Positions 7,501 to 53,021 of a stretch of DNA of 64,000 nucleotides are shown piece after piece (the first letter of the stretch is position 1; each line of letters opens with the position of its first letter). A model generated the notes under the pieces. It searched no databases and had not been told where the DNA came from. It saw nothing but the letters and a program-made list of their open reading frames with translations. Source of the stretch: an uncultured Eubacteriales bacterium (lineage in GTDB: Bacteria; Bacillota; Clostridia; Oscillospirales; CAG-272); NCBI GenBank assembly GCA_958414825.1, contig CATYXQ010000004.1, forward strand, positions 8,667 to 72,666, given 5' to 3'. A program made the translations under genes and the position numbers.

Positions 7501-7532
7501 CTAAAAATTTTTTTTGATTGCATTTTAGTCAT
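1506..7532 (-). CDS. Giant (2008 aa) secreted, SLH-anchored surface protein with DUF4430-like (transcobalamin beta-domain-like) modules, Ig-like repeats and a Listeria-Bacteroides-type repeat
   Basis: ORF track. N-terminal signal/TM segment (KKIFSLILLLIMIMGAALVTVFA). A DUF4430-type block lies near aa 1560-1680 (...ISEIDGLAEFDNGILSGWMYLLNGTYPNLGVAEQTLKNRDRIIFHYTDDY). A more divergent copy lies near aa 40-170 (VSVLDALVTLHK...GFVLNG...DDDTVEFFIY). There is a YTIKFETNGG...GFTFVGWF...FTLYAKW repeat. Three C-terminal SLH repeats are present (FIDVEKGSWYETAV..., FTDVADGEWYENAV..., YTDADDVSDWALEAV...). Confidence 0.9.
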   Translation of the reverse strand: MTKMQSKKIFSLILLLIMIMGAALVTVFADTVTNIQSVEVNLTAQADGAFLCAPQFGIKVDSNTAEIYGFEDSVDGVSVLDALVTLHKIKYGNSFTKDAAGNYLALNDYGSTSKSFGYSDRYAGFVLNGAYPNDGTESNFGGYNGTLETTQELNDDDTVEFFIYAEDWSDELAWFNYKGNAVTEITATPGLSASLTLNSLPYSYGYLYKDADAVHTAGSAVSGAQLALVDMTDNISGDSLAIITDAVTDENGKVTVTAPATEGTYYLTAYMPNGTAGEPLIMSLTKIIVDKDIPVSNPCDLTSLSITDLNNNPNALKLTPNFNSSVTSYSVPSVVYDSLGFVYVKAAAEDSDAVITAECNGKSEKITSGDSAWKALTFALSAGKNNELKITVEAQSQAKTYTVIVPMKPQNNTVPAASKTSDTASIMLGEDYNVNLSDIFTDIDEIDTLTYTVAINGTDAVSANEDYAFTPDETGEYTLVFTANDGTADSEAYTVTLTVTEKFTAPTSITIEHDAKDIIDGIIITKKGDKFKLTAYNENGEETPVTWTTTSTSSVVLDGATGEFEVIVDAYSSTSYWYFTAVSKLDNSITAKTTVKATGYLLNESQKTQTIALSEDGQTSKTMSLTAGKSGHNIWSYNISEGVGELAADPGNGGTIKFNLFRPGTITATFELDINEELTDTATITVTGVAVEDNKGNNGKTYLSVSTETPNPTVQLTAYAAEGKTVVSWSSADETIASVDENGLVTAKGVGSTIITAIDNDGTKGGIKVVVDSEETPYFESLEFLTTAFTSGAWTKDSTFVPTKLEYDLPLKTYSTSSLTLQATTIYDTNKYTAVAEYTDINGNKQSITVNSGKITTLPNQPFDSSVITITLTDKNNSEKATVYTFNVSRPRDTTKLIKNRSIVLTPTNRALSSTAYNGVTEGTMQKCDENGVLTSGSGVSGSAYYYRTFIYDDAQSFRLNLTASTSYAHIRYSTDNGKTYTEIAQGGGITEAIAPPAEGASVIIIQMIDDATYVKNIANGENGFANSTPTEYKVWIDKIALSCAKILTAKTSNGDWYPAFNQDKYSYWIVIENSATAPVLTYTVADGCTVKIGAAVQTPDESGNYTLTFGKSQTTVTVTSEDGCFTNTYKFGYKKKSAMDVPDKVVDYLCIGSQYTNAGYGTYPEQTLGGGLKSLGNFGGYITYYYEDPIIDNPNNKYGMDFYVIGNSSETNIDSMAELGQVYVSEDGKTWYALAGSEHYENKAIWDYTITYTKGDDGKAYWTDNQGNSINYAAKAWPSAAYYYMNDTALRDTYSFTGVLFESQFGSIMGNSSSTASYAASAKFGYTDYYASNISGTTVTDVNSYIEKPSKANGFDVAWAVDEDGIPVDVSNMEFHYIKVATASNIYAGMFAEKSTEVTYVVRTTAQNSAVGKTKAPTGVTISDGADSKIINFANGQTVYSVNLDNMKYVSVTVNGTVNDDNIYVNNQRVESGASAEGFKVTKEKGETLVRVIVQNGDKEPAIFLLKLTSSAEESDELIEGIKINANGTIREATTKNGASYTASVGYRIGNISISTVAAQNVDITVDGEPVAASYDLDYGKNTFEITAKDDGGNTQTVTLTVTRESAPVSTGKTITVKFTLYGDDKHGEAEVHTYKNDKKNLPVWISQKSYTVDSGATVLDVFEIALAEAGLSFENDGGNYISEIDGLAEFDNGILSGWMYLLNGTYPNLGVAEQTLKNRDRIIFHYTDDYTNEEGSEEWENSSSGTTTTMYTIKFETNGGSKVKTQSVKKNDTATEPDDPTKEGFTFVGWFIDKNLTEEYNFSSKVKKNFTLYAKWEKVKKEEITFIDVEKGSWYETAVTYVVENNLFNGISETEFAPGGNMTRAMLVTVFYRLENPQGKSYKHSFTDVADGEWYENAVAWASENGIVNGISETEFAPNDNITREQMITVIFRYAKMKGYDITASTEISQYTDADDVSDWALEAVKWAISTELITGTSYTTLSPKATTIRAQVAIILMHFCENITK

Positions 7533-7659: not shown

Positions 7660-7799
7660 GTTTTCCCGCATCACCACATTTTGTCGGCGCCAAAAAAGAC
7701 AACAACAAACAAAGCCCTGAGAATACCCAATTTTTCCGAGAGGTGTTCAGCGCCAAACAAAATTACCATTTCCTATGTCGATATAATGTCGGCACTTAC

Positions 7800-7975
7800 G
7801 GAAAAAGTATCAGAGCAGGTCTTTTGACTCGCATCATATAAAACGCGTGTATATCCTGCCTTCTCAGTTTCCCAATGACCGGCTTTCACCGACGGATATA
7901 CATTCTTTGATGCATACAGCGACTGGTATCGTCGTGGGTTCTCACCACGTTCCCTTTTCACCGATTGTACCTTGG
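7800..7975 (-). promoter_or_regulatory. Cobalamin (B12) riboswitch aptamer
   Basis: The reverse complement reads ...ATCGGTGAAAAGGGAACGTGGTGAGAACCCACGACGATACCAGTCGCTGTATGC...GGTGAAAGCCGGTCATTGGGAAACTGAGAAGGCAGG...GCGAGTCAAAAGACCTGCTC. This matches the conserved GGTG..AGGGAA..GGTG..AA..CC core. It also matches the B12 box (consensus rAGYCMGgAgaCCkGCc; here GAGTCAAAAGACCTGC at 7811-7829). Boundaries are approximate. Confidence 0.8.
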
Positions 7976-8401
7976 ATGAAATCCATTTGCAGTACAACCG
8001 ACACTCTGTTGTGATATATTATATTTTTTATGGTATACGACCGAATACTATATAAGGAGTCATCATATACCAATTCAATATTATATCACATATACCGGCG
8101 AAATGTAATACGCAAAACGACGATCTTTTTATAAAAAATGAAAATATTTCTGGTATACATTGGATTTCATATTCCATTTTCCCGTTCGATAGAGTATCAG
8201 CGGTCAGAGTTTTATTATCTTATCTATAATGACCCGTTACACACGCCGATCTGATACATCAAATCCGAAGTCGCTTGAACTGCATGTGCTTGGAGGCGCG
8301 GACGGAAAAGTAGCACGAGTACAGGATATTCTGACTCGCGGCGCAAATGCGTATCTTTCGGACGTATTGATCGAACTGTTTTCGGTAAAGTAATAAAAAA
8401 T

Positions 8402-18788: not shown

Positions 18789-19021
18789 GCCAAATCTCCT
18801 TTCTGTCGGCGTTCTTCGAGCACGGTAATACGGTGCTCGTGGTCGTCGATCTGCTCGCCGTGATGCGTGATGCGCGCCTCGTTGCGCGCCATGTTCTGAT
18901 TTAAGCTGTCAATCGAGCAGTTCAGCTTCGTGATGCTCGAATTGAGCTTGATTATGGGCGAGATCACCGAGAGGCCGAAGCCGACTAAGGCGATAAGCCC
19001 CGTTACAATTTCCCACGTCAT
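18785..19021 (-). CDS. Small membrane protein (N-terminal TM plus coiled coil); lysis-associated or holin-like
   Basis: ORF track. MTWEIVTGLIALVGFGLSVISPII TM segment, then a heptad-like region. It overlaps the start of the M23 gene. Confidence 0.5.
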   Translation of the reverse strand: MTWEIVTGLIALVGFGLSVISPIIKLNSSITKLNCSIDSLNQNMARNEARITHHGEQIDDHEHRITVLEERRQKGDLA

Positions 19022-19033
19022 TTGTTTCCTCCT

Positions 19034-20743
19034 TTATGTCCCATATTCGCCCCGGTTACCGCCGGAACCGCACGCGCGGGCGGCGACGCGCCAGTAATCA
19101 ATGCCGAGGTTATTGCGCAAACTAACACAAGCAAAACCGCCGTCGCCCCAAGAATCCAGACCGCCTAAAGCCAGCCATTCACGCCAACTGGTAGTTGCCG
19201 CACCGTCACGGGAAAAGTCCGCACAGTAGCCGGTAGTGGCGGAACTCGCAAAGGACTGTGCAAGCATATATGCTTCCTGGTCGTTTGCCTCCCAGTTGAG
19301 TTCTGCAACACATTTACTCCCTGCATCCGTTTCCTTTGGGATCGTACCAACCCTGTAACGGTTGGCGCCGCTGTTGCCTGCCTGAATGTCGGCGGCCTTG
19401 CGGTTAAGATACACGGCGTACTTTTCAGCGTCCCCGTAAAGCGTGGTATCAGCAGTCACCTCATACATACCGAGCATTATTTCAATACCCTGAATCTTAC
19501 AGGGCTCTTTGCCGCTGATGTTATCGGTAGGACTGCCGTCATTGCCGAGCACACCGTTCGTGCTGCCGGTCTGCCACGGTTGCGCCACAATGTATGTGGC
19601 GGTTGTGGTGTTAAAGGGCGTTTCGGCGTCGAGGTTTACGGCCTTGTACGCCGTACCGTCCACCGTTACATCCTCAATGCTCAAAATCTTTGTAATATCG
19701 CACACATCGTAGCAGGCGGTTTGGTTTCTGTCTTTACTGGCGCCAAGCGATACGCATCTGCCTGCCGCAAAATACGCCGCCTGCGCGGCGGTGAGCAGCA
19801 CGCGGGTCACGCCCGTTTCAGCGACTGCCGCCGTATATGCGGCAGAATAACTGCGGCATCCACTCATTACCTGCGCGGAGCCGAGCGTTGCATATTTGAT
19901 CTCCAGCATCAACTGCACAAAAGCAATATCGCACAGACTCGCCCCGCAGTATTGATTCCCCCACTCACGCCACAAGCTGATCTGCCCGTCATGGCTGATC
20001 TGCGCCGACCCCGCCGAACCGGGGCGGCGGGTTGCGGGCTGCACGCCGGAAACGCTGGAAAGCCGCCCCGCCGCGTTGAATCCCGCCGCATACTTTGCAT
20101 GGATCACAAAGGGACGCACGCTGTTATCGCGCGCCCGCACCGCTTCAGGGAGCGGCTTGAAGCCCTCGGACGGCTTCGCCCGGTATTCCACTTTTTTCGT
20201 CGTATCCGTCGCGGTTCTGCGCACCCAGCCGGTCATCTGCATCACGCCGACCATACTGTCGGCAGGCGCGCCCGTAAAATCTCCCGCAATATCCTTTACC
20301 GCATGGATCACCGGCTCCAGCGTGTCCGCGTCAATGGTATAGTTGCAGTCAAAGCACGCAAACAGCGGCAGATCCGCGTAGTCGTCCCGCGCCGCCAAAA
20401 TATTGGTCGAGGGGACGCAGACAAGCCCCGCATTGCCGTCCAGCTTTGTCCCCGCGGGCGTGGGGTTGACGCTGTATCTATAAAACTCCGATGCGTGGGT
20501 ATCGTCCGCCGATTTTGCCGCCGCCGTGAAAAACCGGTTGGAAATTTCTGTAAGACTGCCGCCGCCCGCATAGATTTCGGCAAATTTTTTAAACGCTTCC
20601 CGCGCGCCGTGCGCCTCGATCAGCAGGGCGGCAATTTGCGCGTCCGCGTCCGCTTCCGCCGCCGTCCTGCCCGCCGCCGCGCCCGCCGCATAGACTACCG
20701 GTATGTTTTCCGCTACTGCCGTCAGCTTGTCCGATATGCTCAT
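19034..20743 (-). CDS. Phage tail fiber or receptor-binding candidate, function unknown
   Basis: ORF track. 569 aa, the last structural gene before the lysis genes. The Ala/Gly-rich N-terminus (MSISDKLTAVAENIPVVYAAG) resembles that of the preceding ORF. Confidence 0.5.
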   Translation of the reverse strand: MSISDKLTAVAENIPVVYAAGAAAGRTAAEADADAQIAALLIEAHGAREAFKKFAEIYAGGGSLTEISNRFFTAAAKSADDTHASEFYRYSVNPTPAGTKLDGNAGLVCVPSTNILAARDDYADLPLFACFDCNYTIDADTLEPVIHAVKDIAGDFTGAPADSMVGVMQMTGWVRRTATDTTKKVEYRAKPSEGFKPLPEAVRARDNSVRPFVIHAKYAAGFNAAGRLSSVSGVQPATRRPGSAGSAQISHDGQISLWREWGNQYCGASLCDIAFVQLMLEIKYATLGSAQVMSGCRSYSAAYTAAVAETGVTRVLLTAAQAAYFAAGRCVSLGASKDRNQTACYDVCDITKILSIEDVTVDGTAYKAVNLDAETPFNTTTATYIVAQPWQTGSTNGVLGNDGSPTDNISGKEPCKIQGIEIMLGMYEVTADTTLYGDAEKYAVYLNRKAADIQAGNSGANRYRVGTIPKETDAGSKCVAELNWEANDQEAYMLAQSFASSATTGYCADFSRDGAATTSWREWLALGGLDSWGDGGFACVSLRNNLGIDYWRVAARACGSGGNRGEYGT

Positions 20744-20755
20744 ATTTCTCCTCCT

Positions 20756-21256
20756 TTACGCCTGAGAAAACGCCGTGATTTCAAAGGCCGCCGTCTCGCC
20801 CGTCACCGCCGCGCCGTAATAGACCGCGCTGTAATATGTGTCCTCGCCGGAAGCTTCGATTGTCATATCGTAAATGACAATCGACCCGCCGCCGCTTCCG
20901 CTCAGCATACCGCCGCTCCACCCGCTGCTCCAATATCCGCCGCCCTCTATGGGGGGTGAGAACAGAAAGCATCCGTTTTGGGTCATGACGTGCGTGGAAT
21001 CTCCGGTCGGGATCGCGATTGTTTTCGTCGTTCCGTCGCCGAGATACACAGTAGCGGTCACGCTCTGATACGTGTTGTGAAAGGTCACGCTGACAGACGC
21101 GCCGCCCGACGGAATTTGCGCAATATATCCGGGCAGGTCGCTCAGCGCCGCGCCGGACGGTACGCTCACGCCCTTTGCCGTGACTGCGCTTTTGCAGCTG
21201 CCAATGGCGGCGGAGAGCTTTGCACCCGTCTGCGTCAAACTCGATGCAATGCTCAT
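20756..21256 (-). CDS. Phage tail-fiber-associated hypothetical protein
   Basis: ORF track. ATGA overlap with the upstream collagen-like gene. Preferred over the overlapping 20781..21269 ORF, whose product is Arg-rich and of low complexity. Confidence 0.5.
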   Translation of the reverse strand: MSIASSLTQTGAKLSAAIGSCKSAVTAKGVSVPSGAALSDLPGYIAQIPSGGASVSVTFHNTYQSVTATVYLGDGTTKTIAIPTGDSTHVMTQNGCFLFSPPIEGGGYWSSGWSGGMLSGSGGGSIVIYDMTIEASGEDTYYSAVYYGAAVTGETAAFEITAFSQA

Positions 21257-22623
21257 ACCGTACCTCCAATCATCGCGTCAAGCGAAGCGATAACCGCGTC
21301 CACGTCGCCGATCATAGCGTCTATCTCCGCCTTGGTGTACGTGTTTTGGGAGACTTCGGCGGCTATTTCCGCTTTGTCGGCGGCGGTCAGTATGTAACTG
21401 TCCCCCTTGTCTCCCTTATCGCCTTTCGCGCCCGGTTCTCCCTTGTCTCCCTTGTCTCCCTTTGCCCCCGGCGCGCCTGTGTCGCCTTTCTCTCCTTTTT
21501 CGCCGGGATCGCCTTTGTCTCCTTTTTCTCCCGGCTCGCCTTTCAGCACAGACAGCGGCGCGCCGTTTATATAGTCCTGCTCCAGCGCCGCTATCGCGTC
21601 CAGCGCCGCGTTTGTGTCTCCGAGCAGATCTTCTTTTTGTTCGGGCGTCATGTCCGCATAGGTAAATGCCGCTCCCGGCTCTCCTTTTTCACCCCGGATG
21701 TTTGCGCCGTCGGCGGCGGGCATATCGGATTTGCTCGCCGACCAGCTGAGATTCCCGGCGGCGTCTACCGACGGGGTATAATAGCCGCCGTCTGTTCCCG
21801 CGTCCCCTTTTGCCCCCGTCTCGCCTTTCTCGCCCTTGATGTTCGCGCCGGACACGCCCGGCATACCGCTTTTACTCGCGCGAAAGCTCAAATTTCCCGC
21901 GCCGTCTACCGCCGGGATATAGTACCCCCCGGCCTCTCCCGCCGCGCCCGCGTCTCCTTTTTCGCCTTTCTCTCCTTTTTCGCCCGGCTCGCCGCGCTCG
22001 CCTTTCTCCCCCGCCAAGCCTTTCGGTGCTGTAAATTCAGCAGTTGCGCCGGTGTCAAAAGTTTGTCTGTAGATATTCCCGCCGTCCGAGTCCTCGGCAA
22101 CAAACACCGTGCTAACAATTTTTGCACCTGTTGCGCCAGTGTCGCCTTTCTCGCCTTGCTCCCCGCGATCGCCTTTTTCGCCTTTGAATTTGCCTGCGTC
22201 AGCGTCATCACGTACAGATTGCGCGATTGCTTTTGTATCTTCGCTCAATGTAATAAGCTGCTCGTATTCGTTTGGTGTTGGTTTGGACGCTTCGGTGCCG
22301 TCTGTATAGATTCCTTTGTTGATATACACGGATGCTATTACGCTGGGGAGGATTTTTTCACCGTTTTGACCGACAACACCGATTTGTAATGTTCCGGGTT
22401 TTGTCAGCGTTTCCCACGGTACAGTGCAAATATTAGATGCGTCAAGCAATATTTTTTTCACGCTTCCGCTTCCCGCAAATACAGCGGTCTTGGTATATCC
22501 ATCCCATTCTTCGTCAAATTCAAATTGCGTGTATACGGTTTCGATAGAGCGTTCTGTCAGTATACTATAGTCGCAGCGATCAATGTCCCGTCCCGCAAAC
22601 TTGATTGTAATTTGTCCTGTCAT
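21253..22623 (-). CDS. Collagen-like (Gly-X-Y) repeat tail fiber protein
   Basis: ORF track. Several G-X-Y tracts, for example GEKGDRGEQGEKGDTGATGA and GEPGEKGDKGDPGEKGEKGDTGAPGAKGDKGDKGEPGAKGDKGDKG. Confidence 0.8.
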   Translation of the reverse strand: MTGQITIKFAGRDIDRCDYSILTERSIETVYTQFEFDEEWDGYTKTAVFAGSGSVKKILLDASNICTVPWETLTKPGTLQIGVVGQNGEKILPSVIASVYINKGIYTDGTEASKPTPNEYEQLITLSEDTKAIAQSVRDDADAGKFKGEKGDRGEQGEKGDTGATGAKIVSTVFVAEDSDGGNIYRQTFDTGATAEFTAPKGLAGEKGERGEPGEKGEKGEKGDAGAAGEAGGYYIPAVDGAGNLSFRASKSGMPGVSGANIKGEKGETGAKGDAGTDGGYYTPSVDAAGNLSWSASKSDMPAADGANIRGEKGEPGAAFTYADMTPEQKEDLLGDTNAALDAIAALEQDYINGAPLSVLKGEPGEKGDKGDPGEKGEKGDTGAPGAKGDKGDKGEPGAKGDKGDKGDSYILTAADKAEIAAEVSQNTYTKAEIDAMIGDVDAVIASLDAMIGGTV

Positions 22624-25548: not shown

Positions 25549-28029
25549 TCAAACCTCCGAAAAGTTTATGCCTACACGCTTGCTCTCGCGCTTGTTGAGC
25601 TTGTATACCAAACGACCGAATTTTTCCCCGTCGATTTCAAGAATTGCCTCTGTTTGTCCCGCCGCTCCGGTGCGGGAGATCACATTGGCGACGGCCTGTT
25701 CGATTGTAGCGAGTGGCGCTTCGATGTTCGTTCCGTGTTTTTGATCGCCCAGTACGGCTAAAAATTCGCGGTTGGCTGGTATGACCGCGCCGGTCGCAAG
25801 CATAGGAATTTGAGGAGTTTCAAAATGGGCAAAGTTGAATCCAAATGTCTTCCCGCCTAGCGGCGGTGGTACCCATTCGGGTATATCAAAACTCAGCGTA
25901 TTTATGGCGTCGATCATGTAATTAAGGCCGCCGATTATTGCGGCTAATAGTTTATTTACAAGTCCTATTATGGCGTTTATTGGTGTTTTCACAATACTTT
26001 CCATCGTGTCCCATATACCTTTAAATGCCATTTGTATTCCGTTCCATGCTTCCTCCCAGTCGCCTTTGAATATCGCGGTGATAAAATGAACAACGCCTTT
26101 TAACGCTGTAATAATACCATTAACCGTATCTATAATGCCTCCTATAATCGGCTTGATAAAATCTATAATGCCTTGCCATACTGCTACAACAATTGGATAC
26201 AGTTTATCCTGTAACCACATGATTACCGGGGCTATTGCATTGTTGTAAATGGTAAGTGCACAGTTTACAATCTCGCCTACAAAGTCCAGTATATTATCCC
26301 ATAGTGGTTTTAAATGGTTGTCCCATATATCCGTCAGTGCTAAGAGTATCGTATCCCATATAGGTTTGATTAGTCCATCCCACGCATTTTTTATAATTTG
26401 CTTGACATTTTCAATCGCTTTATTCAATCCTTCAAATATAGGTGCACCCCATTTTTCCCATGCGTCGAAAATTCCGCTCCATATATCGCTCCATATGTCT
26501 ACAATTAAGGACAATCCGGGTATAATTCCCTCGCTCCATACGTTGTCGAATATTGATTTTATGCTGCCGAATGTCTGGGTTGCAGTATTGCTTATATTTG
26601 TAAAAAAAGAGAGCCAGAACGGCCATATCGTTGTAATTAATGTTTGAGATGCTGGAAGAAATACCGTTTTCCAAGTAGATGAAAGTGTAGTGTTGAGTGT
26701 ATCGGATAAATCGGCAATAATCCCTCCCCAATTTTCAATTGTTGTTTGCAGGAACGGCGTTACGTTTCCGTTAAAAAAGTTGTATATTGGTTCTGCAAGT
26801 GTCCCGGAATCTGCAAAAATATTTTGAAATGTATCTTTAATACCGGAAAATTTGGGGGTTATATTGTCAATAGCGGAAGCAAAAGACGGTGAGAGATTCG
26901 TATGGAACCAATCAATCAACTCTTGAAATACCATCTTAATGTGTTCTGCTGCTTTGATGGTTGATGAATTTGCTACTTGTGGCAGTGATGATATTGTTTC
27001 CGATTCAGATCCGATATTAACAGACGTTTGGGATACTGGGGCGTTTCCTGAAATTTTGTTGATTTCATCAAATCCGGCCAGTGATTTATTTTGCGCTTGG
27101 GCGGTTTCTTCGATTGCGTCCGTCAAATAATTTTGCGCTGTCACGGCAGACTGTATATGATCGGTTTGCTTACTCTCTTGCATATTCGTACTAAATAGAG
27201 CCGCCGTGATTTCTTTTATTTTTACAGCGAAAGAAGTGAGCGCAGATACTATGTTGTTAAGTATTTGAAGTGCCGGCGTAAGTACAGTTATAAGAGCGCT
27301 TCCGATTTCGGACATAAATTCTTTCCAGCGTTCAGATAATATACGGGTTTGATTTGCCCAGCTGTTTTGAGTTTTTGCGAAGTCTCCGCTTGCGTCTGAC
27401 AATGCGTTGGTTACGAATGCATAACGTAACCCCACCTTTTCTGCTTGTGTCATGGCGTTGTACGATTTTGTTATACCCTTGGCCATAGCAAATTCTTTCA
27501 GATTGGTTTCCGTCATCACAACACCGAGATCTTTCAGCGTTTCGGTTTCTCCGGTGAATACACTTTTTAATTTGGTTGCGGCGGAATCATGGTCAAGATT
27601 GTAAAATGATGCTACATCGCCCGTAAGTTTTGCAATTTCGATCGCCATATTTGATGCTGCGTCTACAGGGACGCCCATGCTTTTTGCCATAGCCATATAT
27701 GTTGATGCGGTTTGCTTCGCTGCGAGTTTACTCATTCCGAATTGTTCAATAGCAGTATCGGCAAACGCCTCACATTTATATGCCATATCGCCAAATGCCG
27801 TATTTACCACATTCTGTACTTCGGAAATATCACTTGCGAGTTCCACGGCTTGACTGCTAAAATTGACAATAGCTTTTATACTGAACGCTGCCGCGATTGC
27901 CCCCCCGAATTTTTTCAATGAGGATTGAAGCCCGTTTATAGCGCTTTCTGTGTTTTTTATTCCTCTGTTTATGCCATTTTGATCAAATCCAATTGTTAGC
28001 CGAATATCGCCGTCTACGCTTTTTGGCAT
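25549..28029 (-). CDS. Tail tape measure protein
   Basis: ORF track. 826 aa. N-terminal TP901-type region (FGMSKLAAKQTASTYMAMAKSMGVP) and long helical Trp/Ile-rich periodic segments (WDGLIKPIWDTILLALTDIWDNHLKPLWDNI). Confidence 0.85.
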   Translation of the reverse strand: MPKSVDGDIRLTIGFDQNGINRGIKNTESAINGLQSSLKKFGGAIAAAFSIKAIVNFSSQAVELASDISEVQNVVNTAFGDMAYKCEAFADTAIEQFGMSKLAAKQTASTYMAMAKSMGVPVDAASNMAIEIAKLTGDVASFYNLDHDSAATKLKSVFTGETETLKDLGVVMTETNLKEFAMAKGITKSYNAMTQAEKVGLRYAFVTNALSDASGDFAKTQNSWANQTRILSERWKEFMSEIGSALITVLTPALQILNNIVSALTSFAVKIKEITAALFSTNMQESKQTDHIQSAVTAQNYLTDAIEETAQAQNKSLAGFDEINKISGNAPVSQTSVNIGSESETISSLPQVANSSTIKAAEHIKMVFQELIDWFHTNLSPSFASAIDNITPKFSGIKDTFQNIFADSGTLAEPIYNFFNGNVTPFLQTTIENWGGIIADLSDTLNTTLSSTWKTVFLPASQTLITTIWPFWLSFFTNISNTATQTFGSIKSIFDNVWSEGIIPGLSLIVDIWSDIWSGIFDAWEKWGAPIFEGLNKAIENVKQIIKNAWDGLIKPIWDTILLALTDIWDNHLKPLWDNILDFVGEIVNCALTIYNNAIAPVIMWLQDKLYPIVVAVWQGIIDFIKPIIGGIIDTVNGIITALKGVVHFITAIFKGDWEEAWNGIQMAFKGIWDTMESIVKTPINAIIGLVNKLLAAIIGGLNYMIDAINTLSFDIPEWVPPPLGGKTFGFNFAHFETPQIPMLATGAVIPANREFLAVLGDQKHGTNIEAPLATIEQAVANVISRTGAAGQTEAILEIDGEKFGRLVYKLNKRESKRVGINFSEV

Positions 28030-28054
28030 TCATGCCACCTCCTACTAAAAATAG

Positions 28055-28089
28055 GTATAAAAACAGCACCCTATATTTTTAGGGTGCTG
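28055..28089 (-). terminator. Intrinsic terminator ending the moron operon, just upstream of the tape measure start
   Basis: A perfect 10-bp stem CAGCACCCTA / TAGGGTGCTG. On the minus strand it is followed by TTTTTAT. Confidence 0.65.
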
Positions 28090-28128
28090 TGCAAAAGGCC
28101 AGATAAAACTACACAGTATAATGATAGA

Positions 28129-28545
28129 TTACAATAGAAAAAATATTATTATATTTATTATGCAGGAGATAATAACCAGTGCTACAAAAAAGTTTAAGCT
28201 CTTACGGATAGATCGCAAAGCGTTTAACTGCTTAGCTGAAATTAATAAATTTATGTCGTAGTTAGAAATATCCGCAAGCGATTTGACATCCACATATCGC
28301 ACATATTTTCCCGTAAAGTCGTCTTCAAATACATCAAGAGGTAATTTTTGGTGCTCATTTGTCATTTTTTTATATTTAATTTGCTCCTCATCCGAGCAAA
28401 ACTGCTTTTGTATGAGCCCTAAATTCAGCTTTACTTGCCGTAATTCTTTTAAAATATCCAAAGCGCTCTCCTTTTCAATTTGTGCCTCCGCGTGAGAGGT
28501 GATACTAATGGATATACCTCTGTTCCATTGGCATCGGTATTTCAA
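28129..28545 (-). CDS. Moron-encoded C-terminally membrane-anchored hypothetical protein
   Basis: ORF track; the listed start is TTG and an alternative TTG follows AAGGAG further in, so the start is uncertain. C-terminal TM segment FFVALVIISCIINIIIFFLL. The gene is AT-rich relative to the flanking phage genes. Confidence 0.55.
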   Translation of the reverse strand: MKYRCQWNRGISISITSHAEAQIEKESALDILKELRQVKLNLGLIQKQFCSDEEQIKYKKMTNEHQKLPLDVFEDDFTGKYVRYVDVKSLADISNYDINLLISAKQLNALRSIRKSLNFFVALVIISCIINIIIFFLL

Positions 28546-28598
28546 ACCACGCCTCTAATAGAGGTGACTTTCTTGCCGTAATTTTTTATTGTCTCCCT

Positions 28599-29222
28599 TT
28601 AATTCATATAATTTGTAACGATATAGCATTTTTCCAGATTTACGCTAATCAAATAGTCATCGACTACGCCTACAATGTAAATCTCATCTCCTTTAGATAA
28701 TTCCGCCGCTTTATCAATTTCTTCTTCATCCGTAATGGTACAACGTACACTGTTTAGCGAATATTTTTCGTCATCGGATAAAGAAATATAAACATCATCT
28801 AAAATATCCTTACCTAAACTATTTATATTGCCCTGTACTAATATAAGCTTCCCTTGATAGGCTTTTTCCGCTTTTAGTTCATTTTCCAGATATGCGTTAA
28901 TTAAGTCGGGCGCGCTGATCACATCAAGTGATTTTATTTTTTCGGAAATAAAAGTACTGATATTGGCGTCAGGTTTTTTCTCTTCCAGTTCTTTCAGTAT
29001 ATCAAGCATTTTCGGAAAATCCGAATCATTAAACGCTTTTTCAGCAAGGTCAAAATATTTTTCGCTTATGCTTTCCGTTGTTGTAGGTAATGTGACTTCA
29101 TCGAGCATAACAGACAGGTTGTCTGTCGAATTTGTAGTGTAAGCCGGATCTGTAATAGTTACACAACTAAATAAAGCGAGAAGCATCAACACCGCTGCAA
29201 TGACAAGAATACATTTTTTCAT
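28599..29222 (-). CDS. Moron-encoded lipoprotein with an OB-fold (tRNA_anti-like) C-terminal domain
   Basis: ORF track. Signal peptide with a lipobox-like LFSC (MKKCILVIAAVLMLLALFSCVT). The C-terminal pattern AYLENELKAEKAYQGKLILVQGNI...VRCTI...LSKGDEIYIVGVV...LEKCYI matches the tRNA_anti-like OB-fold family pattern as I remember it. Confidence 0.65.
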   Translation of the reverse strand: MKKCILVIAAVLMLLALFSCVTITDPAYTTNSTDNLSVMLDEVTLPTTTESISEKYFDLAEKAFNDSDFPKMLDILKELEEKKPDANISTFISEKIKSLDVISAPDLINAYLENELKAEKAYQGKLILVQGNINSLGKDILDDVYISLSDDEKYSLNSVRCTITDEEEIDKAAELSKGDEIYIVGVVDDYLISVNLEKCYIVTNYMN

Positions 29223-29249
29223 ATTTTTATCCCCCTATGATTTTCCATA

Positions 29250-29278
29250 ATTTTACTATAATTTGGAAGTAGTGTCAA
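29250..29278 (-). promoter_or_regulatory. Near-consensus sigma-A promoter for the lipoprotein/TM-protein operon
   Basis: Minus strand: TTGACA (29278..29273), a 17-nt spacer, then TAAAAT (29255..29250). Confidence 0.55.
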
Positions 29279-29339
29279 TTGATTCGACCAAAAAAGACAC
29301 AAATTTTATAAAAGCATTTGAGAAATAGCAGATATGCTA

Positions 29340-29367
29340 TTGACAAAAATAGCGAATATGCTATAAT
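29340..29367 (+). promoter_or_regulatory. Near-consensus sigma-A promoter (extended -10) for the DUF4160/DUF2442/XRE operon
   Basis: TTGACA (29340-29345), a 16-nt spacer, then TGcTATAAT (29359-29367). It is flanked by direct repeats AGATATGCTAT and GAATATGCTAT, which could be operator half-sites. Confidence 0.6.
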
Positions 29368-29395
29368 AAAATTTACAGTAAGGAGGATGAATGCA

Positions 29396-29662
29396 GTGCC
29401 GGAATTATGTAGATTTTTCAATATCGTTATAAAAATGATTTTCAGTGATAACGATCAGCATCACAAACCGCATTTTCATGTTTATTATGCAGAATTTGAA
29501 GCCTCTGTCGGAATTGACGGAGAATTGATGGCCGGAAGTCTTCCGGTTAAGCAATTACGGCTTGTACAGGCATGGGCGGCGATACATGAAGAGGAACTTT
29601 ATGCAGCTTGGAACAACGCTGTAAGGAACATGCCGATTGAGAAAATTGAGCCGTTAAGATAA
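29396..29662 (+). CDS. DUF4160 family protein
   Basis: ORF track lists 29318..29662. The GTG at 29396 lies 9 nt after AGGAGG and gives an N-terminus (M)PELCRFFNIVIKMIFSDNDQHHKPHFHVYY. This matches the DUF4160 pattern (MP.is.F.GI.I.my..dH.PPHfHv.y). Confidence 0.8.
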   Translation: MPELCRFFNIVIKMIFSDNDQHHKPHFHVYYAEFEASVGIDGELMAGSLPVKQLRLVQAWAAIHEEELYAAWNNAVRNMPIEKIEPLR

Positions 29663-29674
29663 GGGGGCATAAAA

Positions 29675-29974
29675 ATGTATATTGAGAATGGGATAGCCTA
29701 TGCGGGAGAGAAAAAAGCACCGTTGAAAATTATCGGCGTTCGTCCCCTCGCGGATTATAATCTGTGGGTGCGTTTCAGCACAGACGAAGTAAAAATATTT
29801 GATTTTAAACCGCTGTTGGAAGCTCCCTGTTTTAAGCCTTTAAAAGACGTCGGTGTATTCAGCGGCGTTTATATCGACTATGGTTGCACGGTATGGAACG
29901 ACGGGGCTATCGATATAGCGCCAGAATATCTTTATGAGAACGGTGTAGCAGTGAGGAGTGTTTCCAATGCCTGA
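29675..29974 (+). CDS. DUF2442 family protein
   Basis: ORF track. IIGVRPLADYNLWVRFSTDEVKIFDFKPLL...GAIDIAPEYLYENG is typical of DUF2442, which commonly pairs with DUF4160. Confidence 0.8.
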   Translation: MYIENGIAYAGEKKAPLKIIGVRPLADYNLWVRFSTDEVKIFDFKPLLEAPCFKPLKDVGVFSGVYIDYGCTVWNDGAIDIAPEYLYENGVAVRSVSNA

Positions 29975-30179
29975 AAGATGCAGCGCGATCATCGACCGTA
30001 TTATAGAGGAAAGGCACAACCGAGGAATGACACAAAAAGATTTGGCCGAAGCTGCAAGTCTTACGCAATCTGTTATCGCAAGATTGGAAAGCAAAAAAGT
30101 AACGCCTCAGCTTGATACGCTTTTAAAAGTAGCCGCCGCGCTCGGCTGTGATCTCTTGGTGGTACCTGCCGTCCAATAA
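29967..30179 (+). CDS. XRE-family helix-turn-helix protein
   Basis: ORF track lists 29958..30179. The ATG at 29967 lies 8 nt after GAGGAG. HTH: MTQKDLAEAASLTQSVIARLESKKVTPQLDTLLKVAAALG. It overlaps the DUF2442 stop. Confidence 0.8.
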   Translation: MPERCSAIIDRIIEERHNRGMTQKDLAEAASLTQSVIARLESKKVTPQLDTLLKVAAALGCDLLVVPAVQ

Positions 30180-30254
30180 CACAAAGCCTATCTTGATTCA
30201 TATTTTGCAGGAGGCTTTAAAGGAACGTTTGCATATTCAACAGTGAATAGCATT

Positions 30255-30287
30255 AAATAAAAGGAGAGCTTCGGCTCTCTTTTTTAA
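30255..30287. terminator. Bidirectional terminator at the right edge of the moron island
   Basis: AAAAGGAGAGC-TTCG-GCTCTCTTTTTT. It terminates the plus-strand XRE operon. On the minus strand it sits at the stop of the Gp15-like gene (30284) and is followed by TTTTATTT. Confidence 0.7.
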
Positions 30288-30847
30288 TCCAAGAACCCGT
30301 TCAAATAGGCTTGTTCCGCGGTGCTGTTTTTTTGCTTTAGCCGAACGATGTCCGCGTGTTCCCGCAAATAGTCGCGTTCCCATTTTTCGAGTGTTTTTCC
30401 TTTTGTCTGCTTCCCGCGAATCGAGACAACTGTTGCAAACGTGCAGTCTCCGATCTCCATATATGCGGCCAGAAACGACCACCAATGCAGATAGGGCAGG
30501 GCGCGAATATCGGATCCGACAATGCGGCTTACCGGCGCGACAATCAGCCTCAAGTCCTGCTCCCAGTCCATCAAGCGCGGCGGTTGTCTGTCCGTGTTTG
30601 GTTCCTCGCCGCCATCAATAAACCATGACATTTGGCGTATAGCTTCCTGTATATTGGATGGAATTTTCGCTCTGGGTTCTGTGTCATCATAGAAAATAGT
30701 CAGCGCCGCAATTAAGCGTTCGCCGTCGGTCAAATCCGGGTCTGTCAGCGCGGCGATTACATCAAGGATCATGCGCCAGTCTCCTCGTTTTCGGATGGCA
30801 TACGCCTGGCCGTCAATTATGACGGATTCGGGGAGATCGTAGTTCAT
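30284..30847 (-). CDS. Tail assembly chaperone, Gp15-like (T-like partner)
   Basis: ORF track lists 30284..30997. The internal ATG at 30847 forms an ATGA overlap with the upstream ORF stop. MNYDLPESVIIDGQAYAIRKRGDWRMILDVIAAL...IFYDD resembles the phage Gp15 family found just before tape measure genes. Confidence 0.65.
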   Translation of the reverse strand: MNYDLPESVIIDGQAYAIRKRGDWRMILDVIAALTDPDLTDGERLIAALTIFYDDTEPRAKIPSNIQEAIRQMSWFIDGGEEPNTDRQPPRLMDWEQDLRLIVAPVSRIVGSDIRALPYLHWWSFLAAYMEIGDCTFATVVSIRGKQTKGKTLEKWERDYLREHADIVRLKQKNSTAEQAYLNGFLD

Positions 30848-31272
30848 TTTTTCGTGTATTTGGCGGTATGCTTGGCTATACGCTCGGCGCTTGCGCGGTT
30901 GGCGTCGCTGATGCGCGATTGTATGTGCGGCGTCACAGCGGCCAAAAATCGCTCTGCAAAGGTAATGCCGGATGCGTTCAGCGCAAGCGGACTGCAATAC
31001 ATAAATACCTTGTCGCTGATTTTGCTGCCAAAAATATAATCGATTTCCTGACGGATTATATTTCCGGCGAGCATTACGGCTTTTGCACTGTCGGTTTCGT
31101 CTTTGGGGATTTCCGCAAGCGCCTTTTCAATGTTTTCCCGTGATTTCTCGATGCGCATAAGGATGTCGGTATCACTCGGATTAAATTCAATGGTCACGGC
31201 CTCATCCCGATCTGTAAACACCAGATTAAATTTCTCAATGCCCTCTGAAAGATTGATGGTGTTGCTGCTCAT
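30844..31272 (-). CDS. Tail assembly chaperone (G-like)
   Basis: ORF track. 142 aa and acidic. It sits between the major tail protein and the Gp15-like ORF. Confidence 0.55.
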   Translation of the reverse strand: MSSNTINLSEGIEKFNLVFTDRDEAVTIEFNPSDTDILMRIEKSRENIEKALAEIPKDETDSAKAVMLAGNIIRQEIDYIFGSKISDKVFMYCSPLALNASGITFAERFLAAVTPHIQSRISDANRASAERIAKHTAKYTKK

Positions 31273-40639: not shown

Positions 40640-41002
40640 TTAAATCTCCCGTATCCGGATCCCGTATTTCTGCAGCATCAGCTTACGCTTCAGGACATAT
40701 TCCCTTGTCCGCACGCCCTTGACGTCCTCGACGACATAGGCCATAGTCTCCGTGTCGAAATAGCAGAAATCGGCGTAATAGGCGCATTCCCGCTCGATCA
40801 GCTTCCCCTTTATCGGCTGACCGCGTTTCCCAGTCGCGCCTCCTTCACGCTGCGCCGGGATCAGCACAAATTTTTTCTGCCGCCGAAGCTCGGCTATCTT
40901 CCCGGCGCGCTCCAAAAGTCTTAGCTCCTGATACCGCCGCGCCTCTTTTTCGCTGTCAAACACGACGCCGTCTATCTCGGTTTTTCTGTTTTTGTATTTC
41001 AT
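40640..41002 (-). CDS. DUF1064 family protein (putative endonuclease/resolvase)
   Basis: ORF track. KTEIDGVVFDSEKEARRYQELRLLERAGKI...DFCYFD...VEDVKG is typical of DUF1064. Confidence 0.75.
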   Translation of the reverse strand: MKYKNRKTEIDGVVFDSEKEARRYQELRLLERAGKIAELRRQKKFVLIPAQREGGATGKRGQPIKGKLIERECAYYADFCYFDTETMAYVVEDVKGVRTREYVLKRKLMLQKYGIRIREI

Positions 41003-41806
41003 TTCGCCGCTCCGTCAAAAATACTTGCCTGTACATACTGCGATTCATATGTACGCGCACCAAGCATTTGCGCCGTGGCTTTGTTGTAATATTCCCGCGA
41101 CACCTCAAAGCCATATGCATTTCGTCCGAGTTCCGCACATGCCCGAAGTGTGCTTCCGCTTCCCGCACATGGATCGATCACCACGTCGCCCGCATCGGTA
41201 AATATCTCGATCAGCCTTTTCAGCACAGATATTGGCTTTTGCGTCGGGTGGATTTTCGGATACTGCTTCGCGCTGTCGCGCTTCCACTCAAACCAATTGA
41301 AAACCATATGCCCGCCACCGTTAAACTTGGGGAGCTTGTCTCGATACAAAACGACCGCATATTCGGTCGCGCCGACGATTTTCATGTTGGCTTTTAAAAC
41401 CTGCGCCGAGTAGTTTTTGCAAAAGATCAGCGGATAGCTGTGCATAAAGCCATACTTCGCTCCGTATTCGATCAAAACAGGTATTTGCTCAAACGCGCAG
41501 AACACGATCATAGCGGGCGCTTTCCCGCGTTCCTTCGGCTCCTTTTTCAGCATCTTTGAGCAGAAGTGCATATATTCCGCGATTTTAAAATCTCCATCGC
41601 CGTTAAAAAACGCTTTTGCCGCCTTTTGGCTTTCGCCGTTTTTGCTTTTGCCGCCGATATACCATTCCGGATTCGAGGCATACGCACTTGCGCCGAGGTT
41701 ATGGTATGTCCGCGATCACAAGCTGCGCTTTCGGTATGCCGTACCGCTTGTAGTTCTGGAAATTGTCATGATACAGCTTGATTTTTAGCTGCTTATTCCC
41801 GTTCAT
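40999..41806 (-). pseudogene. Beta-class DNA methyltransferase (N6-A/N4-C type) interrupted by a frameshift inside the DPPY-type motif
   Basis: The N-terminal frame starts at ATG 41806 (ATGA overlap with the upstream stop). It reads MNGNKQLKIKLYHDNFQNYKRYGIPKAQLVIADIP and then TAA at 41701..41699. The +1 frame continues as (Y)NLGASAYASNPEWYIGG...EYMHFCSKML, which is the ORF-track ORF 40999..41571. That ORF carries IHPTQKP and VVIDPCAGSGST. One missing base in GACATACCATA-AAC would restore DIPYNLG. Confidence 0.7.
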
Positions 41807-50349: not shown

Positions 50350-50610
50350 TTAATCCTCATAGTGTCCCATGCAAGATGCGATCAACAAATTCCCGTTTGC
50401 GTCAATATCGTACACGAGTCTGTTTTTTTCATCGATACGCCGACTCCATCCTTTACGATATTTTAAAGCTTCCGGCTTGCCGATCCCGCTATTTACGCCA
50501 TTGCGCTCGATGTCTTTGATTAAATCGTTGAGCTTTTTCAGCGTTTTGCGATCCTGTGTCTGCCAATACAAATATTCGTCCCATGCTCGATCCGACCAGA
50601 GCTTATTCAT
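50350..50610 (-). CDS. yoeB: YoeB/Txe-family toxin (ribosome-dependent mRNA interferase)
   Basis: ORF track. WSDRAWDEYLYWQTQDRKTLKKLNDLIKDIERN...GKPEALK...WSRRIDEKNRLVY is the classical YoeB pattern. Confidence 0.9.
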   Translation of the reverse strand: MNKLWSDRAWDEYLYWQTQDRKTLKKLNDLIKDIERNGVNSGIGKPEALKYRKGWSRRIDEKNRLVYDIDANGNLLIASCMGHYED

Positions 50611-50860
50611 CGTCGCTAACCTCGATTAGATCGTGCTGCACCCCGTTTCCTGCGTGCAGCTGTGCAAATGAGCGGTCTAATTTACTTAAATACTCCGCAT
50701 TCCGCATCGCTTTCTGCATAGCGTTCCACTCTTCTAAACTGATAATAACTACATTTTTTTCCCCTTTGCGTGTGACGATTACCGTTTCTTTATCATCCGT
50801 TACTTTATCGCAGTAAGATTTAAGATTGTCCCGAATGGTAGAATAATTTACAGCCAGCAT
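50603..50860 (-). CDS. yefM: YefM/Phd-family antitoxin
   Basis: ORF track lists 50603..50881. The ATG at 50860 lies 9 nt after AAAGGAG. NYSTIRDNLKSYCDKVTDDKETVIVTRKGEKNVVIISLEEW. It overlaps the yoeB start by 8 nt. Confidence 0.85.
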   Translation of the reverse strand: MLAVNYSTIRDNLKSYCDKVTDDKETVIVTRKGEKNVVIISLEEWNAMQKAMRNAEYLSKLDRSFAQLHAGNGVQHDLIEVSDDE

Positions 50861-50968
50861 ATTTTTAAACTCCTTTCGCAATATTAGTACAACTTATTGT
50901 ACAATATCATTATATGTTTGTCAATATATTTTTACTATATCAATAAGATTTTATTTTGTACTAAAAGA

Positions 50969-50986: not shown

Positions 50987-51056
50987 CCTTGATTAACTTC
51001 CCGCGCGGAGGCGCGGATCGAAACGATAAATCTTGAAAGGGAAAGGAGGCGTAAAA

Positions 51057-52653: not shown

Positions 52654-52673
52654 ATGGTGGAGGCGGGGAGAAT
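52654..52673. repeat. Prophage attachment-site core overlapping the ssrA 3' end
   Basis: ATGGTGGAGGCGGGGAGAAT is identical to 16249-16268. Confidence 0.85.
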
Positions 52674-53021
52674 CGAACTCCCGTCCGAAAACCTTTTAAT
52701 ACAACTTTCTCCGGGTGCAGAACACCTTTTTTAATTCCCGCATCTGTTTCCGGTGTACGGGAAAGCAGATTTGGTAGCTTTTTTGTTTATGACCGCTTCA
52801 AAAGCGAACAGGCGGTGCACATTTACCACTAAGTGACGCTCTATCCAAAGCCGTGGTACTCAATGGAAGAACGGGCCGCAAAAAGCGGCGGCACAGCTTA
52901 CGCTGCCTGAGCTACGAGATTATCGTTAGCGTTTAATTTTAAGGTGGGACTTTTTCAGAGGATTCCCAGCCTCTACCCGCTTATCGTATCTTAAAATCCC
53001 CGTCGAAACCTTTACGCCCCC
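52656..53021 (-). ncRNA. ssrA: tmRNA (SsrA)
   Basis: On the minus strand the 5' end reads GGGGGCGTAAAGGTTTCGACGGGG. The 3' end reads CGGGAGTTCGATTCTCCCCGCCTCCACCA (T-arm plus acceptor plus CCA). An internal tag frame, GCT AAC GAT AAT CTC GTA GCT CAG GCA GCG TAA (52930..52898), predicts the tag ANDNLVAQAA. It is adjacent to smpB. Confidence 0.9.

Follow-up and report, generated by a model that had tools for sequence, protein, structure and literature searches.

We analyzed a 64,000-nucleotide stretch of DNA (the window) from an uncultured Eubacteriales bacterium of the Clostridia (contig CATYXQ010000004.1, positions 8,667 to 72,666 of the forward strand) and characterized an island of protein-coding genes and RNA elements that lies within a prophage, between a Gp15-family gene and the gene for the tape-measure protein (TMP). 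We favor, with some reserve, the reading that this island is a composite moron in a hypervariable Gp15/TMP slot of a temperate Clostridia siphophage that sits at the transfer-messenger RNA (tmRNA) gene, and that it protects the lysogen. The island holds a toxin-antitoxin cassette with an additional helix-turn-helix (HTH) gene of the XRE family on the plus strand, and a lipoprotein gene, a CRISPR mini-array, and a gene for a small membrane protein on the minus strand. Its features are given below in window coordinates, together with the flanking genes and the tmRNA gene; loci from relatives carry L numbers.

25549-28029, minus strand: TMP gene, flanking the island (826 aa; phrog_1535, 3.3e-109; start at 28029)
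28055-28090, minus strand: TMP-proximal intrinsic terminator (11-bp stem at 28063-28090, -19.3 kcal/mol, z -4.2, U5 tail)
28129-28461, minus strand: gene encoding a tail-anchored membrane protein of 110 aa (start codon TTG, ribosome-binding site AGGAGAG, C-terminal transmembrane helix)
28473-28505, minus strand: CRISPR repeat R2, degenerate in the manner of terminal repeats (GTATCACCTCTCACGCGGAGGCACAAATTGAAA; aligns with the repeat that closes the L103-L106 arrays)
28506-28538, minus strand: spacer of 33 nt (ACCGATGCCAATGGAACAGAGGTATATCCATTA; identical in L097)
28539-28568, minus strand: CRISPR repeat R1, a type I-C-like variant (GTCACCTCTATTAGAGGCGTGGTTTGAAAT)
28599-29222, minus strand: lipoprotein gene (207 aa; PF12869 'tRNA_anti-like', 7e-20; phrog_8545 'superinfection exclusion Sie-like', 2.9e-13)
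29250-29278, minus strand: sigma-A-type promoter of the lipoprotein/mini-array/110-aa unit (TTGACA-17-TAAAAT, 11/12; kept in L100, L103, and L122)
29324-29340 and 29348-29364, plus strand: two 17-bp palindromic operator-like sites (AATAGC-N2-ATATGCTAT) that cover the -35 and -10 elements
29340-29367, plus strand: consensus sigma-A promoter of the toxin-antitoxin operon (TTGACA-16-TGCTATAAT, 12/12, extended -10 TG)
29396-29662, plus strand: DUF4160 gene, DhiT-like toxin (88 aa; PF13711, 1.5e-21; phrog_14333, 1.2e-27)
29675-29974, plus strand: DUF2442 gene, DhiA-like antitoxin (99 aa; PF10387, 3.3e-11; phrog_37898, 3.6e-29)
29967-30179, plus strand: XRE-family HTH gene (70 aa; HTH_3, 1.3e-13)
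30255-30287, both strands: bidirectional intrinsic terminator (hairpin at 30264-30279, in the interval from the XRE stop to that of the Gp15-family gene)
30284-30850, minus strand: Gp15-family gene, flanking the island (PF06854, 7.6e-19; phrog_706; stop at 30284)
52655-53021, minus strand: tmRNA gene (tag ANDNLVAQAA), at the integrase end of the prophage

An earlier note on this DNA had described a self-contained, AT-rich cargo island at this junction, and most of its anatomical claims were upheld. The insert of approximately 2.2 kb that it reported measures 2,254 bp from the Gp15-family stop at 30284 to the TMP start at 28029. Its claim of AT-richer DNA holds for the island as a whole, which at 37.7% GC falls in the lowest 1.4% of same-size windows (window mean 46.9%, standard deviation 4.6), and does not hold for the toxin-antitoxin half: the deviation is confined to the minus-strand half (34.5%), and the GC content of the cassette (42.1%) is close to that of the neighboring TMP gene (42.0%). 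The two divergent near-consensus promoters that it named, which lie in a promoter region of 173 bp shared by the two units, are the best 2 of 14 sites (9.2 expected in total), and the hairpins of the terminators that it placed at the two edges both fold. It was also right that late transcripts, before reaching the TMP gene, would have to pass these two terminators and would be antisense to three genes. All five of the genes that it listed are present; its membrane protein is shorter than stated (110 rather than 138 aa), and the CRISPR mini-array was overlooked.

The evidence that the Gp15/TMP junction is a variable slot comes from relatives at two distances. We surveyed 96 distant loci, drawn from GTDB genomes and IMG/VR, whose Gp15-family proteins are 38 to 51% identical to that of the window. 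In this survey, TMP was called by a heuristic based on open reading frames (ORFs), many of the loci represent near-identical phages, and 7 of the 96 were too short to score. Comparison with relatives lacking the island, as the earlier note had proposed, found the junction empty (gap ≤80 nt) in approximately 16 of the 96 loci: Gp15 and TMP abut or overlap (gap ≤21 nt) in 15 and are 80 nt apart in one more. The remaining 73 loci have 0.3 to 3.6 kb between the two genes, in >20 length classes. This distant cargo includes reverse-strand Zn-ribbon-transmembrane-DUF4352/DUF5067 proteins, another PF12869 protein, a membrane-anchored Mrr_cat nuclease, HicAB, and antirepressors; DUF4352 is also the domain found in Mpr, a phage-resistance protein of mycobacteria (PMC12596739). 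Because the cargo is absent in some relatives and variable in others, the same five genes do not recur everywhere at this position. The description of the island as moron-type cargo with its own promoters and terminators stands.

Close relatives were found solely by exact-protein look-ups in Logan and ENA assemblies and were absent from INPHARED phage records and IMG/VR. In L097 and L103, the order is Gp15, YoeB/RelB, XRE-DUF2442-DUF4160, further genes, and TMP; in L100, L101, and L122, it is Gp15, HicB-HicA, lipoprotein, and TMP; and L104 has HicBA, array, a 393-aa PF12869 protein, array, the 110-aa protein, and TMP. Exchange of whole cassettes is directly visible in these loci. Positions 29304-30204 of the window, which hold the DhiT-DhiA-XRE genes with their promoter and operators, are exactly replaced by HicAB in L100, L101, and L122, and the replacing cassette comes with a consensus promoter of its own, which bears ATGCGCAT palindromes; the Gp15-proximal terminator on one side and the lipoprotein promoter on the other are common to both versions. 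The 110-aa gene and the mini-array (~28074-28582) form a nested indel that is absent in L100-L102. The lipoprotein is retained, enlarged (L104, 393 aa), or lost (L103) among the close relatives, and L107 has a 143-aa PF12869 lipoprotein in the opposite orientation.

One close relative shares a long tract with the window. Over the 4.1 kb between the stop codons of TMP and the DUF4160 gene (25549-29662), L097 is 100% identical, and outside this tract the tail and head genes are 74 to 82% identical and DUF2442/XRE 93%. From these identities, we read the 4.1-kb tract as a recent recombination block that moves TMP and cargo together. Separately, the additional YoeB/RelB genes of L097 (6335-7033) and L103 (3841-4360) are flanked by a direct repeat of ~40 bp that consists of a terminator hairpin and GTGTTATTG; the repeated terminators suggest that such cassettes enter and leave by recombination between them.

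The control elements of the island are also shared with relatives. The TMP-proximal terminator hairpin lies 33 nt upstream of the TMP start, and the hairpin and its 3' sequence TAGGGTGCTGTTTTTATACC are kept in L097, L100-L106, and L121-L123, all of them close relatives, among which the loops vary and a C/T (G-U) stem variant occurs. Judged by eye, this terminator is missing from cargo-free and reverse-cargo relatives. In lysogens, its likely role is to halt a constitutive cargo transcript before it reaches TMP and the genes for tail and lysis. The Gp15-proximal hairpin, kept in L100 and L101, is stronger on the plus strand (-14.1 kcal/mol, U6) than on the minus strand (-10.6 kcal/mol). The presence of a strong, conserved terminator before an essential late gene predicts that late transcription is terminator resistant. 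The operator-like palindrome has 3 matches (0.2 expected) and none elsewhere in the window, and its half-sites are kept in L103, where the toxin is 87% identical.

The proteins of the plus-strand unit fall in known families. The DUF4160 protein scores 76.8 bits against PF13711 (cut-off 23), and its likeliest start is GTG 29396, 9 nt after AAGGAGG, which gives the same 88-aa start that is called in L097 and L099. The toxin gene comes first and is separated by a 12-nt gap from the DUF2442 gene, whose product scores 43.7 bits against PF10387 (cut-off 23.9). The XRE gene, with ATG 29967 as its likeliest start, overlaps the DUF2442 stop by 8 nt. In the fusion family phrog_29047, the N-terminal half matches the DUF2442 protein and the C-terminal half matches the XRE protein; therefore, these two proteins probably work together. 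The XRE protein is probably either the DNA-binding part of a split antitoxin or an autorepressor, and palindromes over the -35 and -10 elements combined with an XRE gene match the arrangement classically seen in type II operons that regulate themselves.

The closest described system is DhiTA of Dickeya dadantii, in which growth inhibition by the toxin is relieved by the antitoxin and the two proteins control their own expression, the toxin acting as co-repressor (PMC8198452). The window cassette shares with DhiTA a DUF4160 toxin gene closely before a DUF2442 antitoxin gene and a promoter with likely operator control; it differs in its third, overlapping XRE gene, in being prophage borne, and in its Clostridia host. 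The same three-gene order occurs in the unrelated Bacteroides phage BT-TP2 (L124, PQ571279.1 24739-30167), where the TMP gene directly follows the trio in the same orientation. We considered a specific link between this trio and TMP and dropped it, as BT-TP2 is a single case and Dulem virus 33 has the pair among its early genes; two unannotated records, for which only ORFs were listed, revealed no clear trio/TMP link.

What such a cassette does for the prophage can be read in two ways. Beyond a defensive role, there is a fair chance, though we would bet against it, that it serves mainly as an addiction or stabilization module, or is a selfish hitch-hiker. Unrelated families (DhiTA-like, HicAB, YoeB/RelB) swap in the slot, which fits selfish mobile cassettes, and the prophage has another such cassette, surrounded by repeated terminators, beside its integrase gene. 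For DhiTA itself, toxicity and autoregulation were demonstrated, rather than defense (PMC8198452). However, DhiTA gave no plasmid stabilization in an assay whose heading credits ccdAB2 only (PMC8198452), DUF4160 is also the effector domain of the Menshen antiphage systems (PMC12065111), and the cassette of the window neighbors other exclusion-type cargo. The second cassette comprises YoeB (50350-50610, minus strand) and Phd/YefM (50603-50881, minus strand), both confirmed by Pfam, and lies between two direct copies of a terminator hairpin, AAGAGGGCATACGCCCTCT, at ~50323 and ~50966.

The CRISPR mini-array was recognized by comparison with the sister locus L103, which has a longer array at the same site. 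We rejected the 138-aa reading of the membrane protein, given where its homologues start: 28 codons further on, with P0006 and P0007 beginning at the equivalent of TTG 28461 (codon 29 to 31 of the longer reading). The 28 apparent codons before the true start are a repeat-spacer-repeat unit (28473-28568), oriented as a transcript from the lipoprotein promoter would read it. Both of its repeats, R1 and R2, can be aligned with those of genuine arrays in the sister phages L103-L106 and with a type I-C repeat, and the 33-nt spacer compares with spacers of 31 to 36 nt in those relatives. The 3' end of R1, like that of the sister-phage repeat, matches the end, ...GTGGATTGAAAT, of the Bacillus halodurans type I-C repeat GTCGCACTCTTCATGGGTGCGTGGATTGAAAT (PMC6519985). 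A search with Rfam, at gathering and permissive thresholds, detected no CRISPR-DR or other family at the mini-array. If the unit is processed, it would yield a CRISPR RNA (crRNA) of ~60 to 70 nt with an 11-nt 5' tag, UGGUUUGAAAU, and the 33-nt spacer.

Fuller arrays occupy the same site in sister phages. L103 has five copies of GTCGCCTCCCGTGCGGAGGCGTGGATTGAAAT with spacers of 33 to 36 nt, the last repeat being degenerate and abutting the 110-aa gene. There are likewise five repeats in L105 and 3+2 in L104 and L106, where three precede the larger PF12869 gene and two precede the 110-aa gene. Spacer 2 of L104 (2044-2079) has 33 of its 36 positions in common with the TMP gene of L103 (8486-8521) and L105 (2837-2872), and the match is flanked by TTC on its 5' side. 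This trinucleotide is the protospacer-adjacent motif (PAM) of type I-C systems. The target lies in a central segment in which the TMP alleles of L103 and L104 are only 51% identical, so L104 does not target itself. Spacers 1 and 3 of L103 have diverged matches (9 to 11 mismatches) in the C-terminal/3' parts of TMP genes, and three sister-phage spacers searched in IMG/VR matched nothing there.

The mini-array of the window could instead be what decay and an internal deletion have left of a longer array, no longer functional, with the rest of the island being ordinary cargo. We consider this somewhat unlikely. The unit has one spacer and no leader, both of its repeats are degenerate, the target of its spacer was not found, and L103 shows a longer layout of ancestral type with a leader and five repeats. 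On the other hand, spacer length and hairpin positions are kept, terminal repeats are degenerate in functional-looking arrays as well, and the spacer differs from those of relatives, which indicates turnover rather than simple decay.

In the lipoprotein, a signal peptide with a lipobox is followed by a disordered linker and then a helical domain, and an OB fold makes up the C-terminal part. Its signal peptide MKKCILVIAAVLMLLALFSC, with a lipobox L-F-S-C read from the sequence, is kept in the homologous proteins P0001-P0003. Foldseek, run on an AF2 model of the protein (pLDDT 82), matched the OB fold to 3F1Z, a putative nucleic-acid-binding lipoprotein of Klebsiella pneumoniae (TM-score 0.75). 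Orthologues with 67 to 100% identity lie directly upstream of TMP in L097, L100-L102, and L122/L123. The 110-aa protein (AF2 model, pLDDT 77) belongs to a family of 157 clusters at 50% identity, nearly all of them 100 to 120 aa long, and matched nothing in Pfam, PHROG, PADLOC, or PDB in searches by sequence, family profile, and fold; PDB sequence searches with all four non-HTH island proteins likewise returned no match. A spanin-like pairing of the lipoprotein and the membrane protein was considered and dropped, because relatives indicate a Gram-positive Clostridia host and the two genes occur independently. In L128 (1-571), a family member 43% identical to the 110-aa protein lies just downstream of the apparent end of an ABC-transporter ATPase gene; this contig, of 622 bp, has no phage genes, so the 110-aa family may not be phage restricted.

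For the lipoprotein and the 110-aa protein, a promoter of their own, an envelope location, dispensability in sister phages, and the presence of other membrane-anchored ectodomain proteins in their place in distant relatives suggest exclusion-type cargo. That the two are instead lysogenic-conversion or host-fitness factors, or accessories of assembly or lysis, and have no link to exclusion seems unlikely to us. The OB-fold lipoprotein does resemble a chromosomal lipoprotein of K. pneumoniae whose role is unknown, the relative of the 110-aa protein beside the ABC-transporter gene also fits a host function, and both genes are co-oriented with the late genes and so would also be made late. Yet both genes are dispensable in sister phages, and in the same slot distant relatives have membrane-anchored ectodomain proteins with other folds, including DUF4352.

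The least favored alternative is that the repeat units are RNA anti-CRISPRs (Racr) that sequester the Cas5/Cas7 proteins of a host type I-C system and so protect the prophage from host CRISPR. Candidates of this kind typically lie directly downstream of a promoter and include a validated I-C Racr (PMC10651486), and type I-C repeat-like units are found in comparable places here: the R1-type variant is solitary and just after the lipoprotein promoter in L103 and L122/L123. A second I-C-like solitary repeat lies beside the integrase gene of the window, and both repeats of the mini-array depart from the canonical sequence and have weak folds. We nevertheless judge the Racr account improbable, because sister phages have canonical multi-spacer arrays at this site, one spacer of which targets a rival TMP with the right PAM and so calls for a host system that is active and not inhibited, and because R1 of the window, rather than being solitary, is paired with R2 at exact array spacing around a 33-nt spacer. 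No acr gene was recognized near the mini-array. The second solitary repeat (TTAACTTCCCGCGCGGAGGCGCGGATCGAAAC, 50993-51024) follows the YoeB/YefM cassette, 9 nt before the integrase ORF; it is possibly a Racr-type unit, and the YoeB/YefM genes possibly another mobile cassette.

Comparison with known systems places the island among described classes in most respects. The earlier note had treated cargo at this junction as unusual, a view that does not survive: gene 15 of HK97, the first element named a moron, lies between the chaperone and TMP genes (PMC3594210), and most of the Gp15-family relatives that we sampled have an occupied junction. Gp15 of HK97 is expressed from the prophage, and its block of DNA entry depends on the tail tube or TMP region of the incoming phage (PMC3594210). 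The island shares with HK97 gene 15 its position, own promoter and terminator, deviant GC content, absence from related phages, and a membrane protein. In terms of what defines a moron, it is inserted between genes that are adjacent in relatives, has its own promoter and terminator as predicted in silico, and deviates in GC content in its minus-strand half only. Unlike HK97 gene 15, which encodes one small YebO-like inner-membrane protein in a Gram-negative host, the island has five genes and an RNA element in two divergent units, and its products have no sequence relation to gp15.

Virus-borne CRISPR mini-arrays have been linked to inter-viral conflicts (Faure et al. 2019, cited in PMC7099407; Medvedeva et al. 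2019, PMC6858448). One or two spacers and a recognizable repeat subtype are common to these viral arrays, which come without cas genes, and to the mini-array of the window; a spacer that targets a closely related phage is shared by the sister phages only. The window differs in that its repeats are degenerate and its array is located inside an mRNA, between two protein-coding cargo genes beside TMP. A further comparison is with Ltp of Streptococcus phage TP-J34 and similar Sie proteins of Gram-positive hosts. Ltp is a prophage-encoded lipoprotein that is present on the surface of lysogens and blocks DNA injection by way of the TMP of the incoming phage. Ltp has helix-turn-helix repeat domains, and its gene lies between the integrase and repressor genes. 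A lipobox is common to Ltp and the window protein, but the ectodomain of the latter is helical with an OB fold rather than built of HTH repeats, the two show no homology, and the window gene adjoins TMP.

Defense hot spots have been described in phages P2 and P4 (Rousset et al. 2022, as cited in PMC10884400), and the Tab moron targets the TMP of rivals (PMC10884400). As in those hot spots, a fixed genomic position within a lineage gathers diverse, exchangeable cargo, here with a putative anti-phage role; the slot described here differs in belonging to Gp15-type Clostridia siphophages, in its position, and in cargo that includes CRISPR mini-arrays and toxin-antitoxin genes. Toxin-antitoxin cargo, mini-arrays or solitary repeats, and phage defense hot spots are thus classes already described, and the proposal of the earlier note that the island has an undescribed defense function was too strong: the cassette falls in the DhiTA superfamily (PMC8198452), the lipoprotein in a Sie-like PHROG, and the mini-array in a known class (PMC7099407, PMC10651486). 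What seems new is the combination of a cassette-swapping slot in Gp15-type Clostridia siphophages with CRISPR repeats set among the protein-coding cargo genes of one transcription unit, spacers in sister phages that point at alleles of the neighboring gene, and a tripartite DUF4160-DUF2442-XRE cassette.

In the composite-moron reading that we favor, the island would function as two back-to-back units that share a divergent promoter region and are each closed by an intrinsic terminator. The plus-strand unit, antisense to the late operon, would produce a type II toxin-antitoxin pair of the DhiT/DhiA superfamily and a translationally coupled XRE protein that autorepresses the unit through the two palindromic operators over its -35 and -10 elements. 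The minus-strand unit, co-oriented with the late genes, would produce the OB-fold surface lipoprotein, the one-spacer I-C-like mini-array, and the 110-aa protein, and the conserved terminator would bar its lysogenic transcript from the TMP, tail, and lysis genes. Late transcription would override the two terminators by antitermination or high read-through. With this cargo expressed in lysogens, the slot would shield the lysogen, and hence the prophage, from competing phages in several layers: the lipoprotein, and possibly the 110-aa protein, would act in exclusion at the envelope; crRNA-guided targeting would borrow the type I-C Cas machinery of a host that carries the corresponding cas genes, provided that the degenerate mini-array still functions; and the toxin-antitoxin cassette would act in abortive infection or prophage addiction. 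As read from the sequence, an anti-phage role for the island is plausible.

Several results weigh against this reading. The DUF4160 protein matches the NCBIfam model toxin_DhiT (NF048015) at 1e-21 with 77.3 bits, under the equivalog cut-off of 100, and is therefore filed in the DhiTA superfamily and not as DhiT itself. A PADLOC scan of the five island proteins, a check that the earlier note had suggested, returned only generic HTH matches, to the XRE protein. The 'Sie-like' label of the lipoprotein is a PHROG annotation only, and a literature search on PF12869 proteins turned up no tested anti-phage role. R1 and R2 keep the repeat hairpin in place with 5-bp stems of approximately -5 kcal/mol (R2 -5.4), compared to -13 kcal/mol for the canonical repeat. 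The spacer of the window had no target in the fetched loci (1.6 Mb, ≤11 mismatches) or in their six-frame peptides, and two exact sub-patterns of it found no target in IMG/VR; a 19-mer of it gave 11 matches in JGI metagenomes, all attributable to chance, none of which extend. No cas domain was detected among the ORFs scanned in the 64-kb window, so the mini-array may be a relic or a decoy; neither an array of the host's own nor a host cas locus lies within the window. Finally, a strong terminator before an essential late gene could mean that the prophage is defective, though its long ORFs are intact.

The prophage extends over approximately 16.3 to 52.6 kb of the window, has its late genes on the minus strand, and adjoins the tmRNA gene beside its integrase gene; the tmRNA gene is likely its attachment site. 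From its position, the Gp15-family gene may have the role of a tail assembly chaperone. Host genes flank the prophage on one side with FtsW/RodA, HtpG, and phosphoglucomutase and on the other with SmpB (recognized from its translation alone), RimM, TrmD, and UvrC. To judge from the relatives, the host is a gut anaerobe of Clostridia type. Within the prophage, which is otherwise 42 to 51% GC, positions 19000-22400 form a block of 58 to 64% GC with a gene for a collagen-repeat protein (21253-22623), probably a tail fiber module of different origin. A gene with an N6/N4 DNA methylase domain (40999-41571, minus strand), near the packaging module, may encode an anti-restriction methylase. Elsewhere in the window, a cobalamin riboswitch (7797-8020, minus strand; Rfam RF00174, 58 bits) lies upstream of a 2008-aa ORF (1506-7532).

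A more far-reaching idea, which we offer as a long shot, is that the mini-array and the adjacent TMP allele form a linked pair of weapon and immunity, with the two moving together by recombination, as in the 4.1-kb block that is 100% identical in L097, a phage otherwise ~80% identical. Spacers would hit the hypervariable segment of rival TMP alleles, and the phage's own TMP would diverge there. If so, the slot would be a driver of TMP diversification, and of allelic exclusion between sister prophages, and the toxin-antitoxin cassettes and envelope proteins would add further layers. In the same speculative vein, repeats on either side of cargo ORFs may double as punctuation for Cas5-dependent processing of RNA. 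For annotation, the lesson of this locus is that an apparent gene start proved to be a CRISPR repeat-spacer unit. The spacer of the sister phage provides a bacterial case in which a prophage mini-array is aimed, with the correct PAM, at the TMP gene of a related phage, and it supports the model of inter-viral conflict, for which archaeal viruses have to date provided most of the tests. More broadly, the Gp15/TMP slot is a landmark for a cargo hot spot in gut Clostridia siphophages, and it could help to mine anti-phage genes in anaerobes that are hard to culture.

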